Position numbers and translations under genes: made by a program. This document shows, one piece after another, positions 3,438-63,061 of a stretch of DNA of 64,000 nt. Source of the DNA: Chiloscyllium plagiosum. Taxonomy: Eukaryota. The notes beneath the pieces are model-generated. The model saw only the letters and a program-made list of their open reading frames with translations, did no database searches and had not been told where the DNA came from. How positions within the stretch are numbered: the stretch's first letter is position 1; the number at the start of each line of letters is the position of its first letter. Location: positions 77,016,079 through 77,080,078 of the forward strand of contig NC_057718.1 in NCBI RefSeq assembly GCF_004010195.1. The letters are read 5' to 3'.

Positions 3438-5662
3438 TGAGTTAAATATCACACAACACCAAGTTATAGTCCAACAGGTTTATTTGGAAGCACTAGCTCT
3501 CGGAGTGCCGCTCCTTCATCAGGTGGTTGTGGATTATAAGCATGTAAAACACAGAATTCATAGCAAACACTTACAGTGTGTTGTAACTGAAATTATATAT
3601 TGAAAAAGACTTGGATTGTTTGCTAAGTCTCTCATCTTTTCGAATGGACATGTTGGTTTCAGTTCTTTCATATGTAAATTCAGAACTTACTTAAAGTTAC
3701 ATTCTCAAGTGAACTTTAACAATAGGTGCCATGTTGGCCCAGATAATGCACTGGTGGTGTCTGTGCCCCAATGTTCAGACTGATTCTAATCTAAAAATGG
3801 GATTTACAAAATCTTATGTGGATTCATACAGTTTTTGAGCAAAATAAAATGTAATTCTGGAAGTACAAATTCACCCCACAAACCTATGTGTGTGTGTTTG
3901 CATGNNNNNNNNGTGTCTGTGTGTGTGCATGTGGGTTATCTGTGAGTGTGTGTCTGTCTGTGTGTATGTGTGTCTATGTGTATATGTGTGTGTAGTGCAG
4001 TGGGGTCACCTGTAGTGCGACATGAACCTGAGGTCCCGGTTGAGGCCATCCTCATGGGTATTAAACTTGGATTTCAGCCTCTGCTCGGCCACATTACATT
4101 GTCACCTGTCCTGAAGTCTGCCTTGGAGGATGGTCACCCAAAGGTCTGAGGTCGAATGTCCCAGACCGCTGACGTTCTCCGACTGGGACCGAACACTCCT
4201 GTGTGTTGATTGTTTTACGGTGTCCATTCATCTGTTGCCGTAGCCTCTGCTCAGTCTCACCAATGTGAGATTGTGTATTGACCTCCTCAGGAGACAGACA
4301 CGAGCTGCAACCGACAGGTACCCTTTGTTGTCCAGTACTTCCCAGGAGCCAAAAAATGACGTATGTTCTTTGCAGCCTGCAGCACATTATCAATGAGAAT
4401 GAGCACCTCGCCAAGACCTTCCCCACACCTCCACATCTCGCCTTTAAACAACCACCAAACCTCAAACAGATCATTGTTCGTAGCAAACTGCCTGACTTTC
4501 AGGACAATACCATACAACCTTGTCACTGTAGACGCTGCAAGATGTGTCAGAATGTCGACACAGATACCACCATTTCCTGTGGGGACACCTCCCATCATGT
4601 ACGTGGCAGGTACTCATGCGACTCAGCCAGCATTGTCTACCTCATACGCTGCAGGCAAGGATACCCTGAGGAATGATACATTGGTGAGACCGAGCAGAGG
4701 CTATGGCAACAGATGAATGGACACTGCACAACAATCAACAGACAGGAGTATTCCCTCTCAATGGGAGAATACTTCCATGGTCCAGGACATTCGACCTCAG
4801 ACCTTTGGGTGACCATCCTCCAAGGCGGACTTTGGGACAGTCAACAATGCAAAGTGGCTGAGCAGAGGCTGATAGCCAAGTTTGGTACCCATGAGGATTG
4901 CCTCAAATGGGACCTTGGGTTCATGTTACACTACAGGTGACCCCACTGCAAAACACACACATACACACTCCTACAGACCCATACACTAATGCAGATCCTC
5001 TCATACACAAGCTCTTTCTCATCCGGCTCACATATGCAGTCCCACACTTCCATATGCACCCTCTCACAGACTTATACCCCTTTACACTCACACACATACA
5101 CACACTCTCTCACAGACACTCATACCCTAACCACCACCACCACCACCACCCCCCCCCCACCCCCGCACACACATATATAATTTTGTGGGGTGAATTTGTA
5201 CAGAATTACATTTTATTTTGCTCAAAAAGTGCATGAATCCATGTAAGATTCTGTAAACCCTGTTTTTAGATTAGAATCAGTCTGAACATTGGGGCACAGA
5301 CAACCTCACACAGGGCACCTCACATCTTCAATACATTATCTGGGCCAACATGGCACCTATCGTTAAAGTTCACTTGAGAATGTAACATTAAGAAAGTTCT
5401 GGAATTTATATATGAAAGAACTGAAACCAACGTGGTCATTCTAAAAGATGAGAGATTTACAAACAATCCAGGTCTTTTTCAATAATTTCAGTTACATCAC
5501 ACTGTAAACTTTTACTATAAATCCTGTGTCCTACGATCTTGTACTCTGCAACAGCCTGATGAAGGAGCAGCACTTTGAAAACTAGTGCGGTTGGACTATA
5601 AGCTGGTGTTGTATAACTTTTAACTTTTTATACCCCAGTCCAACCCCAGCACCTCCAAATCA
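3438..5662 (+). mobile_element. Penelope-like retroelement, 5'-truncated, with a long inverted 5' arm
   Basis: Cys-rich linker CHCRRCKMC and GIY-YIG (VYLIRC..YIGET..RL..MNGH) at 4500-4940; ~3440-4262 is an inverted copy of the 3' part; TSD TTCTTAATT at 3429-3437 and 5663-5671. Confidence 0.9.
3886..3992. repeat. (TG)n-rich microsatellite, mirroring the (CA)n tract at ~4950-5175 in the PLE 3'UTR
   Basis: Direct reading; contains an 8-N gap. Confidence 0.8.
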
Positions 5663-13685: not shown

Positions 13686-15212
13686 CATAGAACATAGAAG
13701 AATATAGCGCAGTACAGGCCCTTTGGCCCTCGATGTTGCGCCAATCCAAGCCCACCTAAACTACACTAGCCCACTATCCTCCATATGCCTATCCAATGCC
13801 TGCTTAAATGCCCATAAAGAGGGAGAGTCCACCACTGCTACTGGCAGTGCATTCCATGAACTCACGACTCGCTGAGTAAAGAACCTACCCTTAACATCTG
13901 TCCTATACCTACCACCCCTTAATTTAAAGCTATGCCCCCTCGTAATAGCTGACTCCATACGTGGAAAAAGGTTCTCACGGTCAACCCTATCTAAACCCCT
14001 AATCATCTTGCACACCTCTATCAAGTCACCCCTAAACCTTCTTTACACCATTGAAAACAACCCCAAGTGCCTCAGCCTTTCCTCATACAATCTTCCTACC
14101 ATACCAGGCAACATCCTGGTAAACCTCCCCTGCACCCGTTCCAGTGCCTCCACATCCTTCCTATAATATGACGACCAAAACTGCACACAATACTCCAGAT
14201 GAGGCTGCACCAGAGTCTTATAAAACTGCAACATGACCTCAGNNNNNNNNNNNNNNNNNNNNNNNNNNNNNNNNNNNNNNNNNNNNNNNNNNNNNNNNNN
14301 NNNNNNNNNNNNNNNNNNNNNNNNNNNNNNNNNNNNNNNNNNNNNNNNNNNNNNNNNNNNNNNNNNNNNNNNNNNNNNNNNNNNNNNNNNNNNNNNNNNN
14401 NNNNNNNNNNNNNNNNNNNNNNNNNNNNNNNNNNNNNNNNNNNNNNNNNNNNNNNNNNNNNNNNNNNNNNNNNNNNNNNNNNNNNNNNNNNNNNNNNNNN
14501 NNNNNNNNNNNNNNNNNNNNNNNNNNNNNNNNNNNNNNNNNNNNNNNNNNNNNNNNNNNNNNNNNNNNNNNNNNNNNNNNNNNNNNNNNNNNNNNNNNNN
14601 NNNNNNNNNNNNNNNNNNNNNNNNNNNNNNNNNNNNNNNNNNNNNNNNNNNNNNNNNNNNNNNNNNNNNNNNNNNNNNNNNNNNNNNNNNNNNNNNNNNN
14701 NNNNNNNNNNNNNNNNNNNNNNNNNNNNNNNNNNNNNNNNNNNNNNNNNNNNNNNNNNNNNNNNNNNNNNNNNNNNNNNNNNNNNNNNNNNNNNNNNNNN
14801 NNNNNNNNNNNNNNNNNNNNNNNNNNNNNNNNNNNNNNNNNNNNNNNNNNNNNNNNNNNNNNNNNNNNNNNTCCTGTCGACAACGAGGACATAAAAATCA
14901 AGGCCAATGGCTCTGCAATCTCCTCCCTTGCTTCCCAGAGAATCCTAGGATAAATGCCATCAGGCCCAGGGGGACTTATCTATTTTCACCCTTTCCAGAA
15001 TTTCCAACACCTCTTTTCTACATACCTCAAAGCCATCCATTCTACTTAATTGTGACTCAGTATTCACATTGGCAACAATGTCCTGTTCCTGATTGAATAC
15101 TGACGAAAAGTATTCATTCAGTGTCTCCCCAATCTCTTCAGCCTCCACACGCAACTTCCCACTACTATCCTTGACTGGATCTATTCCTACCCTAGTCATT
15201 CTTTTATTCCTG
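13686..15212 (-). mobile_element. CR1 LINE, second subfamily, spanning the assembly gap
   Basis: Minus ORFs LVQPHLEYCVQFWS, TRGHSFKLRGG..FFTQRVV, LNEYFSSVF; (TATGTTC)n tail. Confidence 0.9.
14243..14871. other. Assembly gap (629 N)
   Basis: Run of N. Confidence 1.
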
Positions 15213-17488: not shown

Positions 17489-17695
17489 AAAAATCACACA
17501 ACACCAGGTTATAGTCCAACAGGTTTAATTGGAAGCACACTAGCTTTCGGAGCGACGCTCCTTCATCAGGTGATTGTGGAGGTGAAGGAGCGTCGCTCCA
17601 AAAGCTAGTGTGCTTCCAATTAAACCTGTTGGACTATAACCTGGTGTGTGTGATTTTTAACTTTGTACACCCCAGTCCAACACCGGCATCTCCGA
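17489..17695 (+). mobile_element. PLE fold-back mini-element of the same family as 3438-5662
   Basis: Inverted arms ~17489-17565 / ~17583-17657; TSD ATCATTAATGCT at 17477-17488 and 17696-17707. Confidence 0.85.
17538..17572 (-). ncRNA. Minimal hammerhead ribozyme motif
   Basis: Revcomp CAC-CTGATGA-A-GGAGC-GTC-GCTCC-GAAAG-CTA-GTG; stem I CAC/GTG, palindromic AGCT. Confidence 0.8.
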
Positions 17696-18011
17696 ATCAT
17701 TAATGCTGCTTTACATACATAGGAAATGTTGTCATCATTAACAGGTCAGCTGCAATGTAATTGCTGCATAAATTGAAACTGAAATTCAGATTGAACCTGC
17801 TAAAGTTATTAGACAACCATAACTTGTAATATTTATTTCACCAATTCTAACAGAAACCTAAATTGCATATTTGTGACCTTCACATTTCACCACTTGAGGA
17901 AAAATCACTTTCACCAAGTGGTGAACTTTATGTGGCGAGTCCAACTGAGTTTCTGTTAGATGATAACCCAGCATCCTGATAATGGGGTTTCAGTGATGAT
18001 AGCACCATTGT

Positions 18012-18874
18012 GGAGAAGTTTATGAAGAAAAACACCTTTGACCACAAGTCCATCAGGAAGTGGTCAGCACGTAGTGTCCTTGAGACCCTTCGGGAAAAGG
18101 AGAGGGCGGAACCTATCGAGCAGTTCCCTGAGCAAACTGTCAAAGCCATTTGGCAGAATGCCTCATTGCCAGAACTTTCCAACAAGCATCAAAACATGGC
18201 TTGGCTGGTGGTGAGAAGGGCTCTGCCTGTGAGATCCTTTATGCACGCCCGGACTCTCAGCCGCACCGCACGCTGCCCTCGAAGCGGCTGCGGGGGGGAC
18301 GAGACTGTCACACACCTCCTTCTGGAATGTGCCTACGCAGAAGAAGTCTGGAGAGGAATGCAGTGTTGTTTGTCGATGCTCGTCCCGAGCAGCACCGTGA
18401 CGCGGGACTCCGTGCTCTTCGGCCTGTTCCCTGGGACGCACACCGAGACGAACATCAACTGTGCCTGGAGGATCATCAACTCGGTGAAGGACGCTCTCTG
18501 GGCGGTCCGAAACCTGTTGATCTTTCAGCTGAAGGAGTTGACCCCGACTGAGTGTTGCAGACTGGCACATTCCAAGGTCCAGGACTACGTGTTGAGGGAC
18601 GCGCTGAAGCTTGGGGCAGCTGCCGCCAAGGTGCGGTGGGAAAAGACCACCATGTAACGTCTGCCTGCCTAAAGAAGAACAGGGGGCCTGCGCAGTCATT
18701 TGGGCTCTGCTGACGCCTCAGCTAAAAGTGTAGTTGTACAGACCTGTAAATAGGAATGATTACTCTGTTTCGGTATGCAAAGAAATGGAATGCTTACATA
18801 TGTATGGCATGTCCAACTGTACAGACCATCAAATTATTTTATAAATAAACTATATTTTTGAAATAAAAAAAAAA
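18012..18874 (+). mobile_element. Tx1/L1-clade LINE 3' end (ORF2 C-terminal zinc knuckle), young
   Basis: Uninterrupted 215-aa frame with CPRSGCGGDETVTHLLLEC; CpG-rich; AATAAA plus poly(A); TSD ACCATTGT at 18004-18011 and 18875-18882. Confidence 0.85.
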
Positions 18875-18979
18875 ACCATTGTATGTCAAGGGATGGTGAT
18901 TAGATAGTCTCTTATTGATAGTAGTTATTGTCTGGTATTTCTGTGGCATGCAAGTTATTTGCCACTTGTCAGTCCAAGC

Positions 18980-19164
18980 ACAGCAGGTCAGGCAGCATCC
19001 AAGGAACAGGAGAATCGACGTTTCGGGCATAAGCTCTTCTTCAGGAAGGGCGTATGCCTGAAACGTCGATTCTCCTGTTCCTTGGATGCTGCCTGACCTG
19101 CTGCGCTTTTCCAGCAACACATTTTCAGCTCTGATCTCCAGCATCTGCAGTCCTCACTTTCTCT
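18980..19164 (+). mobile_element. PLE fold-back mini-element
   Basis: 16-bp TSD ACTTGTCAGTCCAAGC at 18964-18979 and 19165-19180; inverted arms centred ~19045. Confidence 0.85.
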
Positions 19165-19610
19165 ACTTGTCAGTCCAAGCCTGGATATTGTCCATATTTT
19201 ATGGCATTTGAATACAGACTGCTTCAGTATTGGAGGAGTTGCAAATGGTGCTGAAAATTGTCAATCATTGGCAAACATCCCTGCTTCTGACTTAATGATG
19301 GAGAAAAGATCATTGTTGAAGCAGCTGAAGATAGTGGCACTACCCTGACAAACTCCTGCAGAGATGTCCTGGAACTGAGATGACTCACTTTCAACAAGTA
19401 CTGCCATCTTCTTTTGTGCCATATATGACTAAAACCAATGGAAAGTTTGTCCCTTGATATCCATTTATTCCAGTTTTGATAGGGCTTCTTGATGTCACTC
19501 CTTCCTCACCTGCAGAATTCAGCTCTTTTGTCCATGTTTGAACCAAGGCTGTAATGAGGTCAGGAGTGAGTGGTCTTGGTGGAACTCAAACTGGGCATCA
19601 CTGAGCAGAT

Positions 19611-19788
19611 AAAAACAAATTACTGCAGATGCTGGAATCTGAAACCAAAAGAGAAAATGCTGGAAAATCTCAGCAGGTCTGGCAGCATCTGTAAGGAGAG
19701 AAAAGAGCTGATGTTTCGAGTCTACTCTTTTATCTCCTTACAGATGCTACCAGACCTGCTGAGATTTTCCAGCATTTTCTCTTTTGGG
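19611..19788 (-). mobile_element. PLE fold-back mini-element, different family
   Basis: TSD ATCACTGAGCAGAT at 19597-19610 and 19789-19802; inverted arms. Confidence 0.8.
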
Positions 19789-19897
19789 ATCACTGAGCAG
19801 ATTATTGCCGAGTAGATGCTGCTTGATAGCACTTTTGATAACGCCTTCTATCACTTTACTGATGATCAAGAGTAGACTGACGGAGCAGTAATTGGCC

Positions 19898-20557: not shown

Positions 20558-20688
20558 AGGAGAAAGTGAGGTCTGCAGATGCTGGAGATCAGAGATGGAA
20601 ATGTGTTGCTGGAAAAGCGCAGCAGGTCAGGCAGCATCTAGGGAACAGGAGGATCGACGTTTCGGGCATTAGCCCTTCTTCAGGAATC
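20558..20688 (-). mobile_element. Solo PLE terminal repeat
   Basis: TSD CTTAGCTATG at 20548-20557 and 20689-20698. Confidence 0.85.
20652..20687 (-). ncRNA. Minimal hammerhead ribozyme motif
   Basis: Revcomp ATTC-CTGAAGA-A-GGGC-TAAT-GCCC-GAAAC-GTC-GATC. Confidence 0.7.
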
Positions 20689-20974
20689 CTTAGCTATGTC
20701 TATTACTTGCTGCGTCTGCTGTTTGGCATGCAAGTACCTCATTTTAAATATTCCTGGTGCTGCACCTGGCATGCTCTCCTGTGCTCACCATTGAGCCAGG
20801 GTTGATCTGCTGGTTTAATGATAATGGTTGAGTGAGAGATATGTCAGGTTGCAGATTGTGCTGGAGTGCAATTCTGCTGCTGTTGATGGCCCATTGCGCC
20901 TCATGGATGTCCAGTCTTGAGTTGCTCAATTTGTTTGAAGTCTGTCCCATATAGTATGGTGATAGTGCTACACA

Positions 20975-21197
20975 GGAGAAAGTGAGGACTGCAGATGCTG
21001 GAGATCAAAGCTGAAAATGTGTTGCTGGAAAAGCGCAGCAGGTCAGCAGGCATCCAAGGAGCAGGAGAATCGACGTTTTGGGCATGAGCCCTTCTTCAGG
21101 CATTCCTGAAGAAGGGCTCATGCCTGAAACATCGATTCTCCTGCTCCTTGGATGCTGCTTGACCTGCTGTCCTTTTCCAGCAACACATTTTCAGCTC
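20975..21197 (-). mobile_element. PLE fold-back mini-element
   Basis: TSD TGATAGTGCTACACA at 20960-20974 and 21198-21212; inversion centre ~21101. Confidence 0.85.
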
Positions 21198-21212
21198 TGA
21201 TAGTGCTACACA

Positions 21213-21409
21213 GTCAAAAGGTGTGGTGCTTGAAAGCACAGCTGGTCAGGAAGCATCCAAGGAGCAGGAGAATTGACGCTTCCAATTTTGAAGAGCTGAT
21301 GGTTGAAATGTCGACTCTCCTGCTCCTCGGATGCTGCCTGACTGGCTGTGCTTTTCCAGCATGACTCTTTTTGACTCTCCAGCATCAGCAGTCCTCTCTT
21401 TCTCTCTCC
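21213..21409 (+). mobile_element. Older PLE fold-back mini-element
   Basis: TSD TGATAGTGC(T/C)ACACA at 21198-21212 and 21410-21424. Confidence 0.8.
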
Positions 21410-21784: not shown

Positions 21785-21988
21785 GCTGAAAACGTGTTGT
21801 TGGAAAAGCGCAGCAGGTCAGGCAGCATCCAAGGAGCAGGAGAATCGACGTTTCGGGCATGAGCCCTTCTTTCTCATGCCCGAAACGTCGATTTTCCTGC
21901 TCGTTGGATGCTGCCTGACCTGCTGCGCTTCTCCAGCAACACATTTTCAGCTCTGATCTCCAGCATCTGCAGTCCTCACTTTCTCCTC
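21785..21988 (+). mobile_element. PLE fold-back mini-element
   Basis: TSD TGTGAATCTAGA at 21773-21784 and 21989-22000. Confidence 0.85.
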
Positions 21989-23404: not shown

Positions 23405-25900
23405 ATTTGTCTTGTTCATTCGTGGAATGTGGGGATCACTGGTTGGGCGAGCATTTATTATAAATTCCTAGTTGCCCTGAAAAGATTGTAGTGAGTTACC
23501 AAATTGAACACTGCAGTTCATCTGTTGTAGGTAAACCTACAATTGCATTAGAAAGGAAGTTCCAAGATTTTGAACCAGCAACACTGAAGGAACAGCACTA
23601 TGTTTCCAAGTCAGGATGGTAAGTGGTTTGGAGGGGAACTTGCAGGTGGTGGTGTTCCCATGTATCTGTTCCCCTTGTCCTTCTAGATGGAAGTGGTCGA
23701 GGGTATGGAAGGTGCTGTCTGAGGATCTTTGATGAATTTCTGTGGTGTACCTAGTGGATGGTACATACTGCTGTGACTGAGTATCAGTGGTGGAGATTGA
23801 ATGCTTGTAGACGTGGTGCCATTCAAGTGGGCTGTATTATCCTGGATGGTGTCAAGCTTCTTGAATGTTGTTGGAGCTGCAGCCAGCCAGGCAAGTGGGG
23901 TGTATTCCATTACACTCCTGACTTGTGCCTTGTAGATGGTGGGTTGGGGATGAGTTACTTGCTTAAATATTTTTTACCATTGTATTTATACGACTAGTTG
24001 AATGCAGCTTCTGGTCAATAGTAACCCCAGAATGTTGAAAATGTGGGATTCAGTGATGGTAAGAGAATTGAATGTCAAAGGATGATGGTTAGATTGTAAG
24101 TTGCTGGATATGGTCACTGGCTGGCGTGAATGCTACTGACCACTTACCAACCCAAGCCTGTATTTGAACATAGACTGCTTCAGTGTCAGAAGAGTCACAA
24201 ATGATGCTGAACATTGCACGAACATCTCGACTTCTGATCTTATGATGGAGAGCAGGTCATTGGTAAAGCAGCTGAAGATCATTGGACCGACGACACTCCC
24301 TTGAGGAACTCCTGCAGAAATGCCCTGGAGCTGAGATGATTGACTTCCAACAACCACAACCATCTTTCTTTGTGACACGTATGACTCCAGCCAGCAGAGA
24401 GTTTGCCCCTTGATTCCCAATACCCTAGTTAGTCAAATGCAGCCTTGATGTCAAGAGCTGTCATTCTCACCTTACCACTGGAATTCAGCTCTTTATGCCC
24501 ATGCTTAAACAAAGACTGTAATGAGGTCATGAGCTGAGTGGCCCTGGCTGAACCCAAACTGGGTGTCACTGAGCAGGTTATTGCTGAGCATATGCTGCTT
24601 GATAGCACTGTTGATTACACCTTCCATCAATTTACTGATAATCAAGATTGTGCTGATTGTGCTGTATTTGGCTGGGTTGGATTTGTTCTGTTTTTTGTGT
24701 ACAGCCATACCTGGGTAATTTTCCATGTTGTTGGGTAGATGCCAATGTTGTAACTGTTCTGGAACAACTTGGCTAGGGGAGCAGCATATTCTGGGGCTCA
24801 AGTTTTCAGTAGTATTGCCGAAATGTTGTCAGAGCCCACAGACTTTGTAGTATCCATTGCCTTCAACTGTTTGTTGATATTAGCTGAAGACTAGCATCTG
24901 TGATGCTGGGACCACGGGAGGAGGCTGAGATAGATCATCCACTTGTTATCCACTGACTTCCAACAACCACAACCATCTTTTTTTATGACACATATGACTC
25001 CAGCCAGCAGAGAGTTTCCCCCTTGATTCCCAATACCCTAGTCAGTCAAATGCAGCCTTGATGTCAAGAGCTGTCATTCTCACCTTACCACTGGAATTCA
25101 GCTCTTTATGCCTATGCTTGAACAAAGACTGTAATGAGATCAGGATCTGAATGGCCCTGGCTGAATCCAAACTGGTTGTCACTGAGCAGGTTATTGCTGA
25201 ATGTTTCAGGCTTATCTTTTACACTGATGTGCTGGGTTTTTCCAATATTGACAATGAGGAAATTTGTTGAGCCCCTTTCTCCAGTGAGTTCGTTAATTGT
25301 CCATCATAATTCATGACTGGATGTGGCAGGACCTTAGAGCTTAAATTTGATCCATTGATTTATGGAATCACTTACCTCTATCACTTGCTGCTTCTGCTGT
25401 TTGGTAGCTTCACCAGGTTGACACCTCATTTTTATGTTTGCCTGATGCTGCTCCTTTATGCTGTCCTCCAATGAATCAGGGTTGACCACCTGCCTTGATA
25501 GTCATATTTGAGTGAGGGATATGCTGGGCCATTTAGCTACACATTTTTTGGAGTAGGATTCCACAGGTTCTGAAGGCACACAGCACCTCATGAATACCCA
25601 GTCTTCAGTTACTAGGTCTGTTCGAAGTCTATCCCATTGGCACCGTGATAGTGCCATACAACACAATGTGAGATGTTCTCAATGTGAAGACAAGACTTTG
25701 TCTCCATGAGCTTCATGCAGTTATAACTTTACCAATACTATCATGGATGTCACCACCTGCTGCAAACTCAGTTTGTACTCATTTGTTCATGGGATGTGCG
25801 TACCACTGGACTTGGCCAGCATTTATTGTCCTATATGCCTTTGAAAAGTTGGTAGTGAGCTTCCTTCTTGAATCCCAGCAGTCGTTGAGGTGTGGGTTTA
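23405..25900 (-). mobile_element. L2/CR1-type LINE (RT and 3' end) with an internal duplication
   Basis: WLESYVSQRKMVVVVG..GVPQGSVVGPMIFSCFTNDL; LLSDTQFGFSQGHS; MEYTPLAW. Confidence 0.8.
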
Positions 25901-26379: not shown

Positions 26380-27399
26380 ACAGATAATTGAATGTTACTA
26401 CTACATGAGGCAACATATAAGTTTTCCTTTCTCCCCTCACAATTTCCAAGCTAAAAGTTGTTTGAGAGATAGCAAAACAGAATTATGGTTTCAAATGTGC
26501 ACGATAAAGGTATATTGGGAATGGTGATGGATGAGGGAGTGCATTGAACTGAGGGGAAGGTGAATGTTATTGATTAGTGATATGCTCACTAGTTAAATAA
26601 TATACTGGTGACAATGGGCATATAGCACATTTTTTGTACAAACTATAGTGTTTTAAACTAATTATTTAAATCCAAATAAATGAAGTTGGCAAAAGGTTTC
26701 CAATATTCAAGAAACAACTGCCTAAAACAAATATTTCACCCCTTATATTTGTAAATGTAAGACCTAATCACCTGTTTTAGGTGTCATCATAGCAACTGGG
26801 CAATGATACATTATTCAGACATTGGGTCTTGCTGAGGAGTCATCAATGACTGAAAATTCAAGAGTTTATTTCTTTTAATTATTGAAAAAGAAACACCCTG
26901 TGAAGTCAGAGAACTTGCTGCCCCATTTGCTCCCCACCACCCCCATCCTTAGATTGTAGAGCTTAGATTCCAGGGACTCATTTCATGCTCAGTGCTACAG
27001 AGGCAAGTGGTCAATATTATTTGCATGAGCTTCCTTGTTATTGTTTGTGGAAATTTGCTGCATGCAAATTGACAGCTGCATTTGCTACATTGCATGAGCA
27101 ATTACACTTCGAAAGTACTTAATCGGTGCCTTTATTAAAAGAACCTAATAAGGTGCTTTGCAACTTCCTGAGGTCTTAAAAGATGTCATATAAATATAGG
27201 CACATGGAAGATAGTATAATGAAGGATATTTAGGTTAGGCAGATCTTTAGAGTAGGATAAAAGGCCGGACAACTTTGAGGGCCAAAGGGCCTGGCCTTCC
27301 CCTAAACTATACTATACTGTTCCATGTTCAAAGTCAATCTTCCTAGCAAGGGTGAATTCCAACTTGTACATCTATCATTATTCATCCAAGGAACAGGAG

Positions 27400-27435
27400 A
27401 ATCGACGTTTCGGGCATAAGCCCTTCTTCAGGAAT
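27400..27435 (-). ncRNA. Minimal hammerhead ribozyme motif
   Basis: Revcomp ATTC-CTGAAGA-A-GGGC-TTAT-GCCC-GAAAC-GTC-GATT. Confidence 0.7.
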
Positions 27436-27469
27436 CCTGAAGAAGGGCTGATGCCCGAAACGTCGATTC
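27432..27469 (+). ncRNA. Minimal hammerhead ribozyme motif
   Basis: GAATC-CTGAAGA-A-GGGC-TGAT-GCCC-GAAAC-GTC-GATTC; 5-bp stem I. Confidence 0.75.
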
Positions 27470-28359
27470 TCCTGTTCCTTGGATGCTGCCTGACCTGCTG
27501 CGCTTTTCCAGCAACACATTTTCAGCTCTGATCTCCAGCATCTGCAGCTCTCACTTTCTCCTATCATTATTCATCACTAATTTAAGATGGTGAAATTTTA
27601 TCAAGAAGGTTTGCTGTTATAATGACTCTGTTAGGGACTATTTATCAGATTCTTTTTGGTCTTAACTTACAATTTAAATAATTGTTTGTTAGGGTCATTT
27701 ATTCTGACTATGTCCAATTAAGCTCAATACAAGCCTGAGAAATTACAATGTATTATCTTCTATTGAACACTTTAGAGTGCACTGGTCATAATATTAACTT
27801 CAATCATTTCAGGACTTTGATGTGGTTTCCACAATATCTTCAGAAGGAAAAATTTAAATGGCCAGTCAGCTTTAAGTGATGTTGAGGTATAGTCCAGGAC
27901 ATCAGGAGAAATATCTTTGTGTCAAATAATGACATAGGATGTTTTTGTCTACCTGAGAGGGAGTCTGTAGCCTCAGTTCAGTGTTTCATTTAAAGGTGGT
28001 GTAAGATAGAATGTTTCAGGAAGGATGGAGAAGAGATTAATGCTTATGGTGGGATTGAATTTGAAGGAACATTTTGTTGCCCAGTTTAGTCAGCAACCTA
28101 AGTACTGAACTACTTTTTACTTTCCTGAAACTCTTAGGCTCTCAGTTTTGTTTTTGCCATTTTTCATGCTTCCATTTCTGTAAAAGATTTCCCCACCCCA
28201 TTGCTACCATTGCACCATCGTTCCTTCAGTTATTAATTATTCTCTGTAAATGTATATAATTTTTCACATTATAGCACCTAGAGTTCCACATTAATATTTC
28301 ACAAGCCATTTAACTGTCATGGATGAACATCCACTTTTACTTAAGCAAGATATGGGATT

Positions 28360-39617: not shown

Positions 39618-39812
39618 GCTTAAAAATGTGTTGATGGAAAAGCGTAGCAGGTCAGGCAGCATCAAAGGAACAGGAGAATCGACGTTTCGGGCATAAGCTC
39701 TTCTTCAGAAACGTCAATTCTCCTGTTCCTTTGATGCTGCCAGACCTGCTGCGCTTTTCCAGAACCCATTTTTAAGCTCTGATCTCCAGCATCTGCAGTC
39801 CTCACTTTCTCC
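39618..39812 (+). mobile_element. PLE fold-back mini-element
   Basis: 17-bp TSD CTGTTTAAAACCTCAGC at 39601-39617 and 39813-39829. Confidence 0.85.
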
Positions 39813-52500: not shown

Positions 52501-54467
52501 AAAAAGGAGTGTCTGATAAGGAGGACAGATTACAGTCCAATCATTATAGAAAAAAAGAAATAAAGAGGAAAGAAAGATTGGATTAAGACAGAGAAAAATA
52601 GAAATAAAGATGACAAGAAAGAATTAGAAATTAAAATGTTGCTATTTTAAAAATCTCTAACAAGTTGCTCCATAAGAATGAAAACATACAAACACGATTT
52701 TGAGGTAGAATCTTTCAAGTCTGCTTTACCATTTAATAAGATTGCGGTTGATCTATTTGTTCCCTCCCTGATTTAGTAGTAATCACATTGTTAAAAAGTA
52801 CTTATATTGTTATTCCAGTTCTAATTTAATCTAATGTAAAAGATTGATGCATACAAATCCAAAAAGTTCTTAATAATATTATTGAAACTAGGCATGATCC
52901 CATTTTGGAAGGCAAAATGTAGACTAGAAAGTTTTTTAAAGATTTGTAACTGATGTATTTCTTAATTCAGTGAATGTGTTGACAAGCTTTTTCATTACTA
53001 AAGCATGGATCATCAACATACAGTTATTATTCCAGCAAAATCTGGCCTGTTGTGCACATACATTCTGGTAAAGTGATGTTGGCTCTGTGGAATTTCCCAG
53101 CATTGTCAAATATCCCATAAATCAAAATCTCATTTTCCACTGATATTGCTTCAGTCTCTTTTTGAAAGTGCTAATTAATTTTGAATTTGGAAGTTTATTA
53201 TGAGCATCCCCAGCTGTGTAGGCAAATTTAATTTTTTTTTCTAATGTCTATTTGTATGTCCATCAGTAAAATAACAAAATAGATGAACTTGCTTAAATCC
53301 AAACAGATATGTAACTCAAGTGTAAAGTTTTGGAGTTTTACTGTTGTACTTCAAGGACCATTTTCCATAGCTGCTTTCAAGTAAAACATACTCAGGTTTA
53401 AAACTGTTTGGCATAAAGGATGGCATGCATTTCCCTTTGAATTGTAAGCTATCTGCGAAAATAACTGGGCCGTGTATTTGGAGGTCACATCGTCAATCAT
53501 GAAATGGGCCATTCAGCATTGATGAGTGAGGCTTTACTACTTACTTGCTATTTGAAAATTGAAACTAACTGGAAGTTTTGTCTATAAGATGTCACTAATA
53601 GGGCCATACCAGATAACAATCTTTAAAACAAATGCAATGAATGTTCCAATGTAGTGTAGTGATCTTCAGATCGCGTCAGATATTTACACATCCACACACA
53701 TGCAAATTACATTTCCTTTTTTCTAGTTAATATTTTACTTAATAACCGAGGTCATCATTTCATATTACACAACCCATATTTGAAACTTTTCAAAGGATCA
53801 TTGCCTGCCTGTACAGTAAGAAGAACCAGATCAAAATCCTGCTCTGGAATATGTTGTGTTACACTAAGAGAATTAATGGGTCTGTAGATGTTTCCCTGTT
53901 GAGCAATACTCTTAATGGGAATGGGGAGTGCTGTGTGTACCAATCCCTGCCACCAAAAACGAGACCAATTCAAGGTAACTGCTGTGCCGGTGACTGAGTC
54001 AGCCTCTGATTGTTGACTTCTTAATTAGTTTTACAAAGTACCCATGCTTCCAGCCAGGTTTCATGCCTGATCCAACTTCCAGGAAAAAGCTCAAGCCCAG
54101 TATAACACCACAAAACTGGCAGACCAGATGGCATAGTGAACTTGGACACCCACCTGCCTCTTTTCTTGCACATGTAATCAGACCAGAAATCTGCCAAATA
54201 CAATTTCTGATCAAACTTGTTCACATGATCTTGGGGGGGATTGATGTTATTCAAAGCCCTGCCCAACTATAGACATGTTCACCTCTTGAGGGCCCAAACA
54301 AAGACAACTTCACCAGCACCATTCAGAGGAAGGCTTGGGCTTGGACCTGCAGCATGTCAGGTGGTCACTGGGGTAGAGGCAATAGGCCTGAAGTAGGAGC
54401 ACTTTGGATGAGGTTTCCACTTCTATATCCACTTTCATCATCATATCTACTCTAAACCAATGCCATA

Positions 54468-54817
54468 TAGAGTCATAGAGTCATACAGCATAGACGCAGA
54501 CCCTTCGGTCTAACCAGTCCATGCTGACCATGTCCCCAAACTGAACTACTCCCACCTGCCTGTGCTTAACCCGTATGCCTCCGAAGCTTTCCTATTCATG
54601 AACTTCTAAAAATGTCCTTTAAATGTTGGAACTGTACCTGTATCCATCACTTCCGCTGGCAGTTCATTCCACATACAAACCACTCTCTTTATGAAAACCT
54701 TTCCCCTCGTGTCCTTTTTTAAGTATTTCTCCTCTCACCTTAAAAATATGCCCCTAGTTTTGAACTCCCCCACCCCAGGAAAAAGACCCTTGTCATTCAT
54801 TTTATCTATGCCCCTCA
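54468..54817 (-). mobile_element. CR1 3' fragment
   Basis: Antisense (ATAGAGTC)n tail. Confidence 0.85.
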
Positions 54818-56250
54818 TGAACAAAGAACAAAGAACATTTACAGCCCAGGAACAGGCCCTTCGGCCCTCCAAGCCTGAGCCGATCCAAATCAACTGTCTA
54901 AACCTGTCGCCCAATTCCTAAGCTTCTGTATCCCTCTGCTCCCCACCTCATGCATCTGTCCAGGCGCATCTTTAATGAATGTACCGTGCCTGCCTCTACC
55001 ACCTCTGCTGGCAACACATTCCAAACGCCTACCGCCCTCTGTGTGAAGTACTTGCTGCATGTATCCCCCTTAAACTTTCCACCTCTCACCTTGAAAGAGT
55101 GACCTCTCTTTATTGAATCCTTCACCTTACCCTGGGAAAAAACTTGTCTCTATCCACCCTGTCTATACCCTTCATGATTTTATAAAACTCAAACAGGTTC
55201 CCCCTCAATCTCCTTTTTTCTAATGAAAATAAACCTTACCTACTCAACCTCTCTTCATAGCTAGTACTTTCCGTACCAGGCAACATCCTCGTAAACCTTC
55301 TCTACACCCTCTCCAAAGTAGGTATAAACAATGACTGCAGATGCTGGAAACCAGATTCTGGATTAGAGTGGTGCTGGAACACAGCAGTTCAGGCAGCATC
55401 CGAGGAGCAGGAAAATCGTTTTGGGCAAAAGCCCTTCATCAGGAATAGAGGCAGAGTGCCTGAAGGGTGGAGAGATAAATGAGAGGAGGATGGGGGTGGG
55501 AAGCAAGTAGCATAGAGTACAATAGGTGAAGAAATGACCTGGGAGTTGCAGTGGGAGAAAGACTCCCTGAGATTCTTGTAGAGAGAGGAGGAAAACTTCT
55601 TCAAGACAGGCATCCTTGCAAGAGGATTCGCAGTAGGGTTAAAATCAACTAGGTAAAAACAATGACTGCAGATGCTGTAAACCAGATTCTGGATTAGAGT
55701 GGTGCTGGAAAAGCACAGCAGTTCAGGCAGCATCCGAGGAGCAGGAAAATCGACATTTCGGGCAAAAGCCCTTCATTAGGAAGGAGGCAGAGTGCCTGAA
55801 GGGTGTCCACATCCTTTTGGTAATGTGGCGATACAGTATTCTAAATGTGGCCGAACCAATGTCTTGTATAATTTTAACATGACTTGCCAGCTCTTATACT
55901 CAATACCCCAACCAATGAGGGCAGGCATACTATATGCCTTCTTGACCACTCTATCCACCTGTGCAGCAAACGTCAGGGTAAAATGGACCTGCAACTCCCA
56001 GATCTCTCTGCCCATCAACTTTTCCCAAGGCTCTTCCGTTCATTGTGTAATTCGCTCTAGAATTAGTCCTGTCTAAATGCATCACCTCACATATGTCTGG
56101 ATTGTAAATCATCTGCCACTATTCTGCCCAACTCTCCAGTCTATCCATATCCTCCTGTATTCTCTGACAGTCCCTTAGGCTTTCTGCTACTCCACCAATC
56201 TTCATGTCATCTGCAAACTTGCTGATCATACCAACAGTGCCCTCTTCCAG
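54818..56250 (-). mobile_element. CR1 LINE, third subfamily, interrupted at 55319-55804
   Basis: (GAACAAA)n antisense tail; RGHSFKVRGGKFKGD; LYKTLVRPHLEYC; antisense SKFADD. Confidence 0.85.
55319..55804 (-). mobile_element. Non-autonomous PLE derivative with two direct terminal repeats, each with a mutated hammerhead
   Basis: 55319-~55470 repeated at 55650-~55804 (period 331 nt); same repeat family as 676-921. Confidence 0.8.
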
Positions 56251-56469: not shown

Positions 56470-57054
56470 TGCAGTGCACTGAGTATAGGAGTTGGGCAGT
56501 CATGTTGTGGCTGTACAAGACATTGGTTAGACCACTTTTGGAATACTGCATGAAGTTCTGGTCCCTCTGCTATGGGAAACTTGTGAAAGGGTTCAGAAAA
56601 GATTTACAAGGGTGTCGCCAGGGTTGGAGGGTTTGAGCTACAGGAAGAGGCTGAATAGACTGTGGCTATTTTCCCTGGAATATTGGAGGCTGAGTGATGA
56701 CCTTATAGAGGTTTATAAAACCATGAGGGGCATGGATAGGGTGAATAGCCATGGTCTTTTCCCTGGGATGGGGTAGTCCAAAACTAGAGGGCATAGCTTT
56801 AAGGTGAGAGGAGAAAAATTTGAAAGGGACCTAAGGGCAGAGGGTTGTGTGTATATGGAATGAGCTGCCAGAGGAAGTGGTGGAGGCTGGTACAACATTT
56901 AAAAGGCATCTGGATTGGTAAATGAATAGTAAGGGTTTATAGGGATATGGGCCAACTGCTGGCAAATGGGACTAGATTAGGTTGGGATATCTGGTTGATA
57001 TGGATGAGTTGGACCGAAGGGTGTTTCCATGCTGTCCATCTCTATGACTCTATG
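56470..57054 (+). mobile_element. CR1 3' fragment
   Basis: LYKTLVRPLLEYCMKFWS; 3' tail. Confidence 0.85.
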
Positions 57055-57910: not shown

Positions 57911-59535
57911 AAAATCAGCACCAGGAGCAATGCCACAGTGTCAACAACTACCTTCTCTTTATCCAAATCTTGCCTTGCAGGACAGCATGACTGAACACAG
58001 AGCTCCAGCTCACACAAGGCATGGGACATATAGACTGAGATTCATTTTTGGACATAACTCATGCTTTCTCAGCAGGTCATTGTCGTAGTCTGCCACCTCC
58101 TGGTAGACTAGCTCCCCCCCAATAAACCAGCTGGGCATGCATTGCCAATAACTATCAGAGCTTTCAGAGCCCCAAACTCCTTTGTGTGCAGCCACTACAG
58201 GGACCTACTAGTGAGAGATAGGAATTAACAATCTGTTCCCCATCTTCCCATCTTCATATGAAGGATACCCTCACTGTGTTATGTGGCACTACCACCATGT
58301 AAAATAGCACAGGTTTCTAACAGATCTAACTATGCAAAATTGGACATCCATGAGGCATTGTGAGCCATCAACAGCAGCAAAAATATACAACAACGCAATC
58401 TTTAACCTCTCAGCCTGCCATATCCTCTGCTGTACCATTACCATTAAGCCAAGGTATCAATACTTGTTCAGTAAACAATTCAGGAGGACATGTGAGGATC
58501 AGGGCCAGGCAGACCTAAAAATGAGGTGTCACCTATTTGCATGTCTAGCAGCAAAAGTAGCAACTTATAGACAGGGCTAATTGATTCCATGACCAACAAA
58601 TCAGACCTCGGCTCAGTAGTCCTGCCACAACCAATCATGAATGGCAGTGGACAAGTAAAAAACTAACTGGAGAAGAAGCTGTACAAAGGAGACCAGCAGA
58701 TTAGTGCAAAAGATAGATTTGAAGCATTTGCAATAACTTCAGTCAGAAGTTCCAACTAACTAGGCCTCTTTCAGAGGTTCCCAGCATCAATGCCAATTCA
58801 GCTAATATGATTCATTCCATGTCAATCAAGACACAGTTAAAGACACTGGATACTACAAAGGCTAATAGTCCTGGCAATATTTAAGGAAGACATGCTCCAA
58901 AACTAGTTGAGCCAATAAGTAAGCTAACCCTGCGCAGCTACAATTTTGGCATATATCTGAAAATGTGAAAAATGGCCCAGGTGTGTCCTGACCATGAAAA
59001 GCAGGACAATTTAACTTGGTCAGTAATCGCTCTGAATCTACTCTAACATCAATCAGCGTTTTTTTAGCAATGACTGGTTTGGATTTACCAGGGCCACACC
59101 TCATGATCTATTTATAATCTTTAATGTATATATGGACAAAAAGTTGATATCCAGAGATGAGAGTGACAGTCCTTGACATCAAGACCACATTCCAACCAGT
59201 GTGGCAATAAGGACACCGAGGATAACTGGAATCAACAGGAATCAAAGACAAAACTCCCCATTGGTTGGAGTCATACCTACACATAGGAAGATGGTGATGG
59301 TTGTGGTTGTTGGAGGTCAGTCATCTCAGCTCTAGGCCATCTCTGTAGGATGTCCTCAGGGAAGTGTTCAAGGCTCAACCACCTTCAGCTACTTCATCAG
59401 TGATCTTCCCATCAAAATAATGTCAGAAGTGGGGTTTGCCAATTATTGCATGATATTCAGCACCATTTTTGACTCCTAAGATACTGTAGCATTCCATGTC
59501 CAAATGTAACAAAACCTGGACAATATCCAGATTAG

Positions 59536-62293
59536 GAAAAAGTGAGAACTGCAGATGCTGGAGATCAGAGTCAAAAACTTTGACACTGGAAAAGCATAGC
59601 AGGTCAGGCAGCGTCCAAGGAGCAGGAGAGTTGGCTTTTTAGGCATACACATTTAGTCAGGAATATGGGGGAGGGGGGAGGCCCAAGGACGTTGAGAGAT
59701 AAATAGGAGGGGAGTGGGTCTGAGAGGGAAGGTAGCTATGAAGGCGATAGGTGTATGCAGGTGGGGGGTGATGGTGATAGGTTGGAGCGGAAGGTGGAAT
59801 AGATAGGTGGGAAGGAAGATGGACAGGTGTAAGAAGTTCAAGAGGGCGGTGCTGAGTTAGAGGGTTGGATCTGGGATAAAATGGGGAGGGAAGATGAGAA
59901 AACTTGTGACATTAACATTGTTACCGTGTGGTTGGAGTGTCCCAGGTGGAGGATGAGGTATTCTTCCTCCAGGTGCGGGTGGCTAGGATTTGGCAATGGA
60001 GGAGGCCCAGGACTTGCATGTCCTTGGCGGAGTGGGAGGAAGAATTGAAGTGGTCAGCCACAGGGCAGTGGGGTTGTTGGGTGCATGTCTCCTGGAGATG
60101 TTCTTTGAAATGTTGCACAAGTTGGCATCCCCTCTCTCCAATGTAGAGGACACTACATCGAGAGCAATACACACAGTAGATGAGGTGCTTAGATGTGCAG
60201 GAAAATCTCTGCTGGATGTGGAAGGATCTTTGGGGGTTTAAATGGAGGTGAGTGGGGAGGTGTGGGCACAGGTGGTGGGGTGTGACAGTAGGTGGTGGAA
60301 ATGGCAGAGCATGTCACGCTGTATCTGGAGATTGGTGGGGTGGAAAGTGAGGACCAGGGATTCTATCCTTGTTAGGGTTGGAGGGGTGGGGTTCAAAGGC
60401 AGAGGTGTGGGAAGTGGAGGAGATGCACTGGAGGGCATTGTTGAGCACATGAGAGGGGAAATTGCAGTCCTTGAAGTAGGAGGCCATCTGGGATGTTTCA
60501 AAGTGGAATTGGTCCTCCTGGGAGCAGATGCAGCGGAGGCAGAGGAATTGAGAGTAAGGGATAGCATTTTTACGGGGGCTGGGGTAGGGGGGTGGTGGTG
60601 GGAGGAGATGTAGTCCAGGTAGCTATGGGAGTCAGTGGGTTTGAAATAGATGTCCGTGTTGAGTCAGTCACCAGAAATGGAGTTGGAGAAATCCAGGAAG
60701 GGGAGGGAGGTGTTCAAGATGGTCTAAGTGAACTTGAGGTCAGGGTTGAAGATGTTTGTGAAGTTGATCAACTGTTCAGCCTCCTGGTGTGAGCATGAGG
60801 TGGTGCCAATAGAGTCATCAATGTAGTGGAGGAAAAGGGGAATGGTGCCAGTGTAACTACGGAAGATGGACTGTTGCATGTACCCAATGAAGAAGCAGGC
60901 ATAGCTGGAGCCCATGCGGGTGCCCATGGCTACACCTTTGGTCTGAAGGAAGTGGGAGGATTCGGAGAAATTGTTGAGGGTGAGGACCACTTCAGCTAAT
61001 CAAATGAATGTGTCAGTGGAGGGGTACTGGTTGGGTTGGCAGGAGAGGAAGAAATAGAGGGTTTGGAGGCCTTCATCAAGGTGGATGGACGTGTATAGCG
61101 ACTGGATGTCCATGGTCATAGAATCCCTACAGAATGCCTACAGTGTGGAAACAGGCCATTTGGCCCAACAAATCCACAACGACTCTTCAAACAGTAGCCC
61201 ACCCAGACCCATTCCCCTACCCTATTACACTACATTTACCCCTGACTAATGCACCTAACCTGCACATCCCTGAACACTATGAGCAATTTAGCATGGCCAA
61301 GCAAGCTAAACTACACATCTTTGGATTGTGGGAGAAAATCGGAGCACCCGGAGGAATCCATGCAGACATGGGGAGAATGTGCAAACTCCACACAGGCAGT
61401 TGCCTGAGGCTGGAACCCGGGTGCTTGGCGCTGTGAGGCAGCAGTGCTAACCACTGAGCCACGATGGTGCCCTGCACCGTGAAGATGAGACATTGGGGGC
61501 TGGGGAAAAAGTCATGGAGGAGGTGGAAGTCATGTCCTGAATGCATGTGGGGAGTTCCTGGACCAAGGTGGACAGGGTGGTGTCAAGTTCAGTGGGGCAG
61601 GAGCAGGTGGAGGCAATGGGTCAAACGGGGCAGTCAGGTTTGACAATTTTAGGTAAAAGATAGAACCAGGTGGTGTGGGGCTCCGGGACTATGAGGTTGA
61701 AGGCAGTGGATGGGAGATCCCCTGAGGTGATGAGGCTGTATTTGGTCTGGGAGATGATAGTTTGGTGATGGGAGGTGAGGTGGTCGAGGGGTCAGTAGGA
61801 AGAGGTGTCCATGAGTTAGCGATATACAGGTCAGTATACAACTGCACCTTCTTTGTCCGCTGGTTTGATGGTGAGGTTGGGGTTGGAGCGGAGGGAGTGG
61901 AGGGTTGCATATTGCGAGGATGAGAGGTCGGAGTGGGTGAGGGAGTGGACAGGTTGAGGTGGTGACAGGTAGTCTTCATGGTGGTTTCAGCAGCGGTGGT
62001 CTTGGTGGTGATCGCGGAGGCAGTTGTCCTGGCAGCTATCACAGAGGCATATTTGGCAGTGGTCTGTGGGGTGGCGGCGGCGGAAGTGATATTATCATTG
62101 CTGCAGTGGTGGTAGCTGCAGTGACCATGTGGCTAAAGGTGTCCGAGCGGTTTTGGAGGCCGGGAGAAGGTTCTGGAACAATCGAGGAATTCTGAGTTTG
62201 GAGGTAAGTATATGAGAGTTTGGTGTAATTACGTTCCTTGATGTCCGATAAGCTGGAGAAAAAGCGTTTGTTGAGTGTGTGGATTCTTCTCAG
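59536..62293 (-). mobile_element. Long decayed Penelope-like retroelement (RT plus GIY-YIG)
   Basis: FTMDIQSLYTSI, LVLTLNNFS..QTKGVAMGTRMG..YA..LHYIDD, IYCVYCSRCSVLYIGE..HFN; terminal repeat at 59536-59665; possible TSD GATTAG. Confidence 0.9.
61116..61478 (-). mobile_element. HE1-like V-SINE inserted in the PLE RT
   Basis: Revcomp GTGGCTCAGTGGTTAGCACTGCTGCCTCACAGCGCC..TGTGTGGAGTTTGCACATTCTCCCC. Confidence 0.85.
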
Positions 62294-63061
62294 GATTAGT
62301 GCTGACAAATGGCAAGTCTCATTCATGCCATGCCCCCTGACATTCAAATGTGATACCATGACTGAATCCCCCACTATCAATATCCTGAGATTACCACTGG
62401 TCAGAAACTGAACTGCGCTAGCCAGGTAAATACAGTGGCTACAAGAGCAGGTCAGAAGCTCAGAAATCTGCAGCAGATCATTCACTTTCTGATTGTCCAA
62501 AGTCTGTCCATAAGGCATAAATCAGGAGTGTGATAAAACACAGCTCCAACAATAATCGAAACGCTTTCCATCATCCAAGTCAAAGCAGCCCACTTGATTG
62601 GCACTATATCCACAAACATTCACACTCTCAGCACCATTGCTCTGTAGCAGCAGTATGTACCATGTACAAGATGCACCGCATAAATTCACCAAGATTTGTT
62701 AGGCTGCACCCTCAAAGCCCATGGCCACTATCATCTGGAAGGACCACAGCAGTAAATATATCAGAACACCCCCACCTGCAGGTTCCCCTCTAAGCCATTC
62801 TAACTTTGAAATATGTCAACATTCCTTCACTGTCACTGGGTTAACATCCTGGAACTTTCTACCTAACAGCATTGTGGGTGAAATTACACCAATAGAACTA
62901 CAGGAGTTAGAGCATAGCTCACTATAACCTTCTCAAGGCCTATTGGGGCTGGGCAATATAGGCTGGCCTATACTGCCATTTACATCTATTTTGCTACTGA
63001 TGAGAACAGTCAGAATCAGATGGTTCTTGTATCTGCTGTATTAGTTGTATTTACAAACATA

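Follow-up and report, generated by a model that had tools for sequence, protein, structure and literature searches.

Insertions of Penelope-like elements (PLEs) are typically partial tandems, in which a truncated copy lies ahead of a full one, and a PLE copy with a 2.8-kb internal deletion is on record (PMC8557442). As set out by Cervera and de la Pena (2020, PMC7229834), retrozymes carry canonical hammerheads whereas PLEs carry minimal ones, and retrozymes derived from PLEs have been described in one chondrichthyan by Li, Clavereau and Pollet (2026, bioRxiv 10.64898/2026.07.22.740005), a preprint whose rule for retrozymes is two complete units. For Poseidon of Anolis carolinensis (PAc), Frangieh et al. 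(2024, PMC11167929) report that hammerhead cleavage is not required for insertion in vitro and that RNA left unprocessed serves as main substrate, with reverse transcription starting 111-118 nt past the point where stem II begins and needing RNA to +172. PLE partial tandems, minimal hammerheads and PLE-derived retrozymes, including those of cartilaginous fish, are already in print. Here, we analysed a minus-strand element of 1.47 units in 64 kb of Chiloscyllium plagiosum DNA (the whole stretch, hereafter the window), which a sequence-only reading had proposed to be a retrozyme-like unit.

That reading had described a ~150-bp direct repeat at 55319 and 55650. BLAST of the region against the 64-kb window recovered the pair as 55316-55469 and 55647-55805 (91.9% over 160 columns, E 2e-60), and global alignment of copy A with copy B gave 156 columns with 144 matches, 5 substitutions and 3 gap events. 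Both copies were therefore found where expected, with amended limits: copy B extends to 55805, and the hammerhead cores occupy 55779-55752 in copy B and 55442-55418 in copy A. Copy B (55650..55805, minus strand) is the upstream, 5'-truncated pseudo-LTR (pLTR), comprising the last ~23 nt of the 3'UTR, the hammerhead and the pLTR to the family tail end, and its bases 55804-55805 match element and host alike, a 2-nt microhomology. Copy A (55319..55469, minus strand), delimited by alignment to copy B and to the window copies, is the downstream pLTR and stops at the family tail end. The terminal base is identical in copy A, copy B and the window copy at 787-923, and we infer that the tail end at 55319 is the reverse transcription start site. 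Between the two copies, the tail ends are separated by 331 nt and the hammerhead cores, measured from C3 (55442 and 55779), by 337 nt, the difference arising because copy A lost 6 nt. From one cut to the other the present distance is 334 nt, whereas the ancestor would have had 337 nt. The figure of 1.47 units corresponds to a unit of 331-337 nt, and TRF called no tandem array at the element, also under the parameters of Li et al. With the pLTR as query, 23 matches at E 1e-5 were obtained in the window, 2 of them being the studied pair.

The 180-nt spacer between the copies (55470-55649) consists of two PLE-derived segments. The first is a PLE 5' region of 119 nt (55531..55649, minus strand), in which an ATG at 55613 opens 29 codons, MPVLKKFSSSLYKNLRESFSHCNSQVISS, 26 of the 29 being identical to the N-terminus of P0001; a further in-frame ATG lies upstream at 55733 inside copy B, through which the frame remains open. 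P0001, placed by NCBI in Chiloscyllium punctatum, is uncharacterised; its 463-residue sequence is common to four RefSeq accessions and annotated as an uncharacterised gene. Its likeness to the locus ends at residue 29, and its later parts match a decayed window element at 62296-61842 (E 2e-16 and 1e-11). P0001 looks like the start of a PLE ORF that shifts frame ahead of the RT. The second segment, of 61 nt (55470..55530, minus strand), derives from a PLE 3'UTR and occurs once only, copy B being truncated ahead of it; it is 70% alike over 60 nt to 59694-59753 (E 5e-4), which is the 3'UTR of a PLE remnant in the window. At the deletion junction (55530..55531, minus strand) codon 28 of the ORF is joined to this 3'UTR and the remaining ORF, with RT and endonuclease, is gone. 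These two matches support the earlier proposal that a large deletion had joined a PLE 5' start to a PLE 3'UTR, and its description of a ~180-bp spacer without RT or endonuclease agrees with the lack of any Pfam match in the 127-codon frame spanning the spacer. Used as a protein query, this frame gave 0 of 6 candidates at near length and two proteins among the 50% representatives: P0001, which matches by its N-terminal stub only, and P0002, which was rejected as a relative, being an unrelated repetitive protein without a name at 27% identity. A weak search for a full-length relative of P0001 gave none among 153 candidates. The coding capacity of the studied copy is the ORF stub only, the RT + GIY-YIG ORF being deleted, and the locus is PLE-derived and not an autonomous PLE.

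The remnant that supplied the 3'UTR match is a decayed PLE of a related family on the minus strand (59540-62300), with an N-terminal region, RT, GIY-YIG, 3'UTR and a degenerate hammerhead, and it ends in a pLTR of the same kind as that of the studied element. Pieces of it between 62296 and 59921 matched GIY-YIG clusters of the Atlas at 0.95 (the family being on 51% and 42% of members) and an RT-named cluster at 0.96, and Pfam found neither RT nor GIY-YIG in these pieces. An insert of ~350 nt in the remnant, at about 61110-61466, is presumably SINE-like. The window also holds seven head-to-head pairs of short PLE end pieces (676-923, 18976-19152, 20987-21186, 21223-21368, 21794-21974, 27383-27547 and 39628-39800), with the inversion point at or near the hammerhead and intact cores in several, and similar fold-backs of other families occur at 19604-19790 and 17525-17623. 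Two same-strand hammerheads at 20573-20686 and 20987-21100, 414 nt apart, served as a control pair. The sequence between them is a host repeat, 67% alike to 58270-58580 and 25377-25672, and the pair was rejected as a second mini-unit, being two separate insertions; at the hammerhead density of this window, chance therefore also brings direct hammerheads close together, and the studied case differs by its wholly PLE-derived spacer. The stretch 20573-21205 as a whole contains two PLE end-piece insertions 300 nt apart within one host repeat, of which one is palindromic and is flanked by repeated GTGTAGCACTATCA, which looks like a target duplication. On the plus strand at 17983-18657, a 224-codon open frame with a Cys/His motif is, we assume, probably the C-terminus of another non-LTR retrotransposon.

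We then compared the two hammerheads with the family form, a minimal type I hammerhead without helix III that reads CUGAUGA-A-stem II-GAAAC-GUC (the form of the window copy at 765, also present in loose ends from each of the four aligned runs). The core of copy B (55752..55779, minus strand) reads CUAAUGA for CUGAUGA (G5A), stem II GGGC-UUUU-GCCC, GAAAU for GAAAC (C15.2U) and GUC, with the predicted cut between 55752 and 55751. The core of copy A (55418..55442, minus strand) keeps CUGAUGA intact, reads AAAA for GAAA (G12A) and has a 3-nt loss that takes out the cleavage triplet GUC. At the position of this core, family contigs have a majority 55422 T>C and CGA inserted behind 55416, and the intact core is present in family contigs and reads. 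A motif scan, together with alignment to 14 further copies in the window, identified both cores; a strict motif scan of the window gave 6 matches with neither studied core among them, and neither minimal hammerhead is among the 18 Rfam matches in the window (E up to 5). Single-strand folding of the hammerheads recovered stem II only and was no better than shuffles (z -0.3 and -1.0), and the fold of the whole element (z -3.2) was without a hammerhead dimer.

None of the two cores at the locus is intact. In PMC6128941, G5A and G12A serve as inactivating changes, combined there in one mutant. A dimer model, as given in PMC4209133, pairs the core of one copy with the GUC of the other at each site, and by analogy both such combinations at the locus would be broken. 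With no monomer or dimer combination offering an intact core and GUC, the locus is unable to release an RNA unit today, and the suspicion that both minus-strand hammerheads are mutated and the copy inactive holds for each copy, by G5A in B and by G12A and the loss of GUC in A. Every core-breaking change is confined to a single copy, so that the two ribozymes, 337 nt apart, were probably still intact when the element inserted.

The element lies within an older LINE on the same strand, the 3' part of which occupies 54901..55318 and the 5' part 55804..56250 (both minus strand). The LINE, which we take to be CR1/L2-type from its peptide motifs, gave no Pfam match. Family contigs run from 55318 straight into the sequence at 55804 onward, and translation of the flanks reads ...HYQKDVD-T-LER... 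across the insertion point, so that the frame is exact when 55319-55803 is left out, neither gaining nor losing a base. This exact host frame shows a single insertion without target-site duplication. The element also sits between oppositely oriented LINE 3' ends that form inverted repeats of 79-86% complementarity (54467-54819 with 56722-57053, and 55831-55902 with 56480-56551).

With up to 3 mismatches allowed, the 64-kb window has a single occurrence of the junction 22-mer, and none of the other copies in it has the 5' region. Four of 24 listed public runs (three of DNA, X1, X3 and X14, and one of RNA) were aligned to 54900-55649 at 86% likeness; the best run holds 0.48 of the words of the stretch, and the contigs may come from relatives and not from the species of the window. 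A joint from 55649 to 55319, linking pLTR and 5' region, was found in 3, 13 and 8 contigs of X1, X3 and X14, respectively; it represents the native boundary between pLTR and ORF and does not indicate circles. As this joint is family-wide, only the 55531/55530 junction is special. Among the 24 of 199,160 pieces listed, none of the three in-element pieces bridged the junction, and two of these three go on, at 55529 and 55531, in 25 and 39 letters that do not match. The listed family pieces stop at 55528/55529 or begin at 55531 and contig ends cluster at 55527-55533, the farthest contig end falling there in 12 of 12 row-by-run cells (variant rows 55490, 55501, 55504 and 55559; 84-125 contigs counted per run, counting up to 128; 40 of 132 rows listed). 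These farthest ends would mark breakpoints, since such ends also coincide with the ends of the reference and with the host edge at 55318; the qualification is that row 55325 passes a boundary by 12 nt and that the values of row 55490 lie within the range of rows not limited by a breakpoint. Depth in the junction bin was the lowest of 13 element bins in two of the three DNA runs; host-flank bins vary several-fold, so this was not counted.

Five joints among the 15 of 102 listed link the front edge of the hammerhead (55444-55450) to the 5' region at 55531-55622. One of them reaches 55531 itself (2 contigs, X1) and two occur in two organisms; their sides are shorter than 30 letters at 86% likeness, such joints are often due to repeats, and they may reflect either noise from repeats or additional short PLE units of 157-246 nt. 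Outside these runs, the junction 22-mer gave 0 matches in metagenome contigs, from which the family is seemingly absent (P0001: 111 pattern matches, none confirmed), and viral contigs and prokaryote genomes, likewise seemingly without family DNA, had 0 matches to a 24-mer of the family hammerhead. On junction copy number, the evidence leans to rare: a large family sharing the junction with the sampled organisms is unlikely within the matches listed for the three DNA runs, and the junction itself may be unique; a small family, or one confined to the lineage of the window, would escape notice here.

RNA was represented by one poly(A) single-cell run, of which about 2 in 100 were read. Of 12,955,460 records, 2002 aligned, 19 of them at >=99% likeness. 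Depth was 150-425 in the pLTR and 4-30 in the spacer, the two directions being represented about equally. This library, poor for circles, gave no pile-up of molecule ends or monomer ends, and its three reads with a go-back joint fit the native pLTR-ORF start equally well. The RNA signal shows family-wide background.

Considering these results together, we regard the locus as probably a one-off, internally deleted partial-tandem copy of an endonuclease-bearing PLE that is now dead. The order of events, as we infer it, would begin with a PLE protein nicking the older LINE and starting reverse transcription at the tail end at 55319, so that pLTR A and then 61 nt of further 3'UTR would be copied. 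The ORF would next be skipped to codon 28, either because a template jump occurred while copying was under way or because DNA was deleted afterwards, with the same outcome, and copying would proceed through the 119-nt 5' region and the upstream pLTR B to end at 55805 on the 2 nt of microhomology, both hammerheads decaying independently after insertion. Three routes yield the same DNA: a template jump on a full-length tandem RNA, a later deletion, or copying of a deleted circle or multimer. Copy B stops 61 nt before it would cross the junction again, and therefore the sequence cannot tell whether the template was already deleted. The tail end at the locus is nt 122 from stem II and the retained 5' region reaches nt 241; by position alone, the unit may keep the cis region mapped in the anole Poseidon.

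A less probable reading is that the element is a decayed member of a low-copy non-autonomous, retrozyme-like PLE family whose 337-nt unit comprised the hammerhead, the tail, 119 nt from the ORF start and the end of the 3'UTR, of which 1.47 units would have been copied by PLE protein in trans from a multimer transcript or from a circle made after a dimeric-hammerhead cut. The probable integrity of both hammerheads at insertion agrees with it, as does the unit size, retrozymes being 170-400 nt (PMC7229834) with a mean of 363 bp in the sole chondrichthyan sampled (bioRxiv 10.64898/2026.07.22.740005); copying of more than a unit from a circle has been proposed for PLEs (PMC4209133), the weak joints at the hammerhead edge hint at other short units, and a non-autonomous element would need the cis region that the unit retains by analogy with PMC11167929. 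However, that likeness to the anole Poseidon is positional only, no second junction copy appears in the window or among the listed contigs of the three DNA runs, copy B ends 61 nt short of the junction, no array was called by TRF, and of 9 retrozyme dimers predicted in Xenopus only 1 showed self-cleavage in vitro (bioRxiv 10.64898/2026.07.22.740005). The retrozyme identity first suggested for this DNA has so far found no backing, given 1.47 units, no TRF array and minimal PLE-type hammerheads in what is an ordinary partial tandem. It is also conceivable, if rather unlikely, that the locus is the fossil of a retrozyme at its birth, an internal deletion having made a 337-nt mini-PLE that kept just what is required in cis, namely the hammerhead, the RT start site, the first ~120 nt downstream and the 3'UTR end, and of which more than one unit was then copied from a circle or multimer by the parent protein.

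Two independent PLE insertions side by side could mimic a tandem, as the pair at 20573-20686 and 20987-21100 does, and yet here the spacer is wholly PLE-derived, copies A and B are nearer each other (3.4% substitutions) than either is to the nearest window relative (7.1% and 8.0%), and a piece ending at codon 28 would still require a deletion; the exact host frame left by removing 55319-55803 largely refutes this explanation, which we consider highly improbable. Hardly more credible is that the junction reflects assembly collapse of a longer PLE copy or the retrotransposition of a spliced RNA that had lost an intron. PLEs can carry introns (PMC4209133), no read or contig spanning the locus is among the matches listed, and there are assembly gaps elsewhere in the window, runs of N at 3905-3912 and 14243-14871; these lie far from the element, however, with no N nearby, and the junction falls in the non-repeated spacer and not within the repeats, where a collapse would be expected.

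If the locus is such a one-off dead copy, it matters little. If the junction is multicopy, the origin of retrozymes from PLEs and PLE copying from circles become testable, and a copy in which the junction is crossed two times would demonstrate that a deleted template had been copied for more than one unit. Were the element instead a retrozyme caught at birth, it would give a concrete route from PLE to retrozyme, by fusion of ORF start to 3'UTR, unlike simple amplification of terminal repeats. Among the publications listed by literature searches, none describes the studied shark unit; the 2026 preprint's supplementary tables of chondrichthyan retrozyme families may bear on it.

Among the described systems, Chlamys PLEs such as MRC1 (Craig et al. 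2021) resemble the locus as short PLE-dependent, putatively non-autonomous units with pLTRs and head-to-tail insertions, but they are multicopy, active, algal and of another clade. PAc resembles it in layout: a hammerhead is followed by a 3' end ~120 nt past the point where stem II begins, and this end lies inside an open frame continuing into the main ORF (PMC11167929). PAc differs in being autonomous and in having its start codon at stem II; at the studied locus, the first in-frame ATG (55733) comes 38 nt later. With the non-LTR retrozymes of animals, as they are described in PMC7229834 and bioRxiv 10.64898/2026.07.22.740005, the locus shares a non-coding character, a ~330-nt unit and a PLE origin, and its direct head-to-tail hammerheads could have acted as a dimer; it differs in its 1.47 units, in having no intact hammerhead and in a hammerhead that is minimal and not canonical. 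In the account of Li et al., retrozymes come from the terminal sequence of PLEs through its local tandem amplification (10.64898/2026.07.22.740005), whereas the unit here arose by an internal deletion and includes the ORF start. The locus also corresponds to the endonuclease-bearing PLEs of PMC8557442, which have two pLTRs in direct orientation, each with a minimal type I hammerhead without helix III, a 5'-truncated upstream copy, a conserved tail end and an ORF start directly after the upstream pLTR; relative to these, the ORF of the studied copy is cut to 28 codons, its hammerheads are 337 nt rather than about 3 kb apart, and both of its cores are broken.
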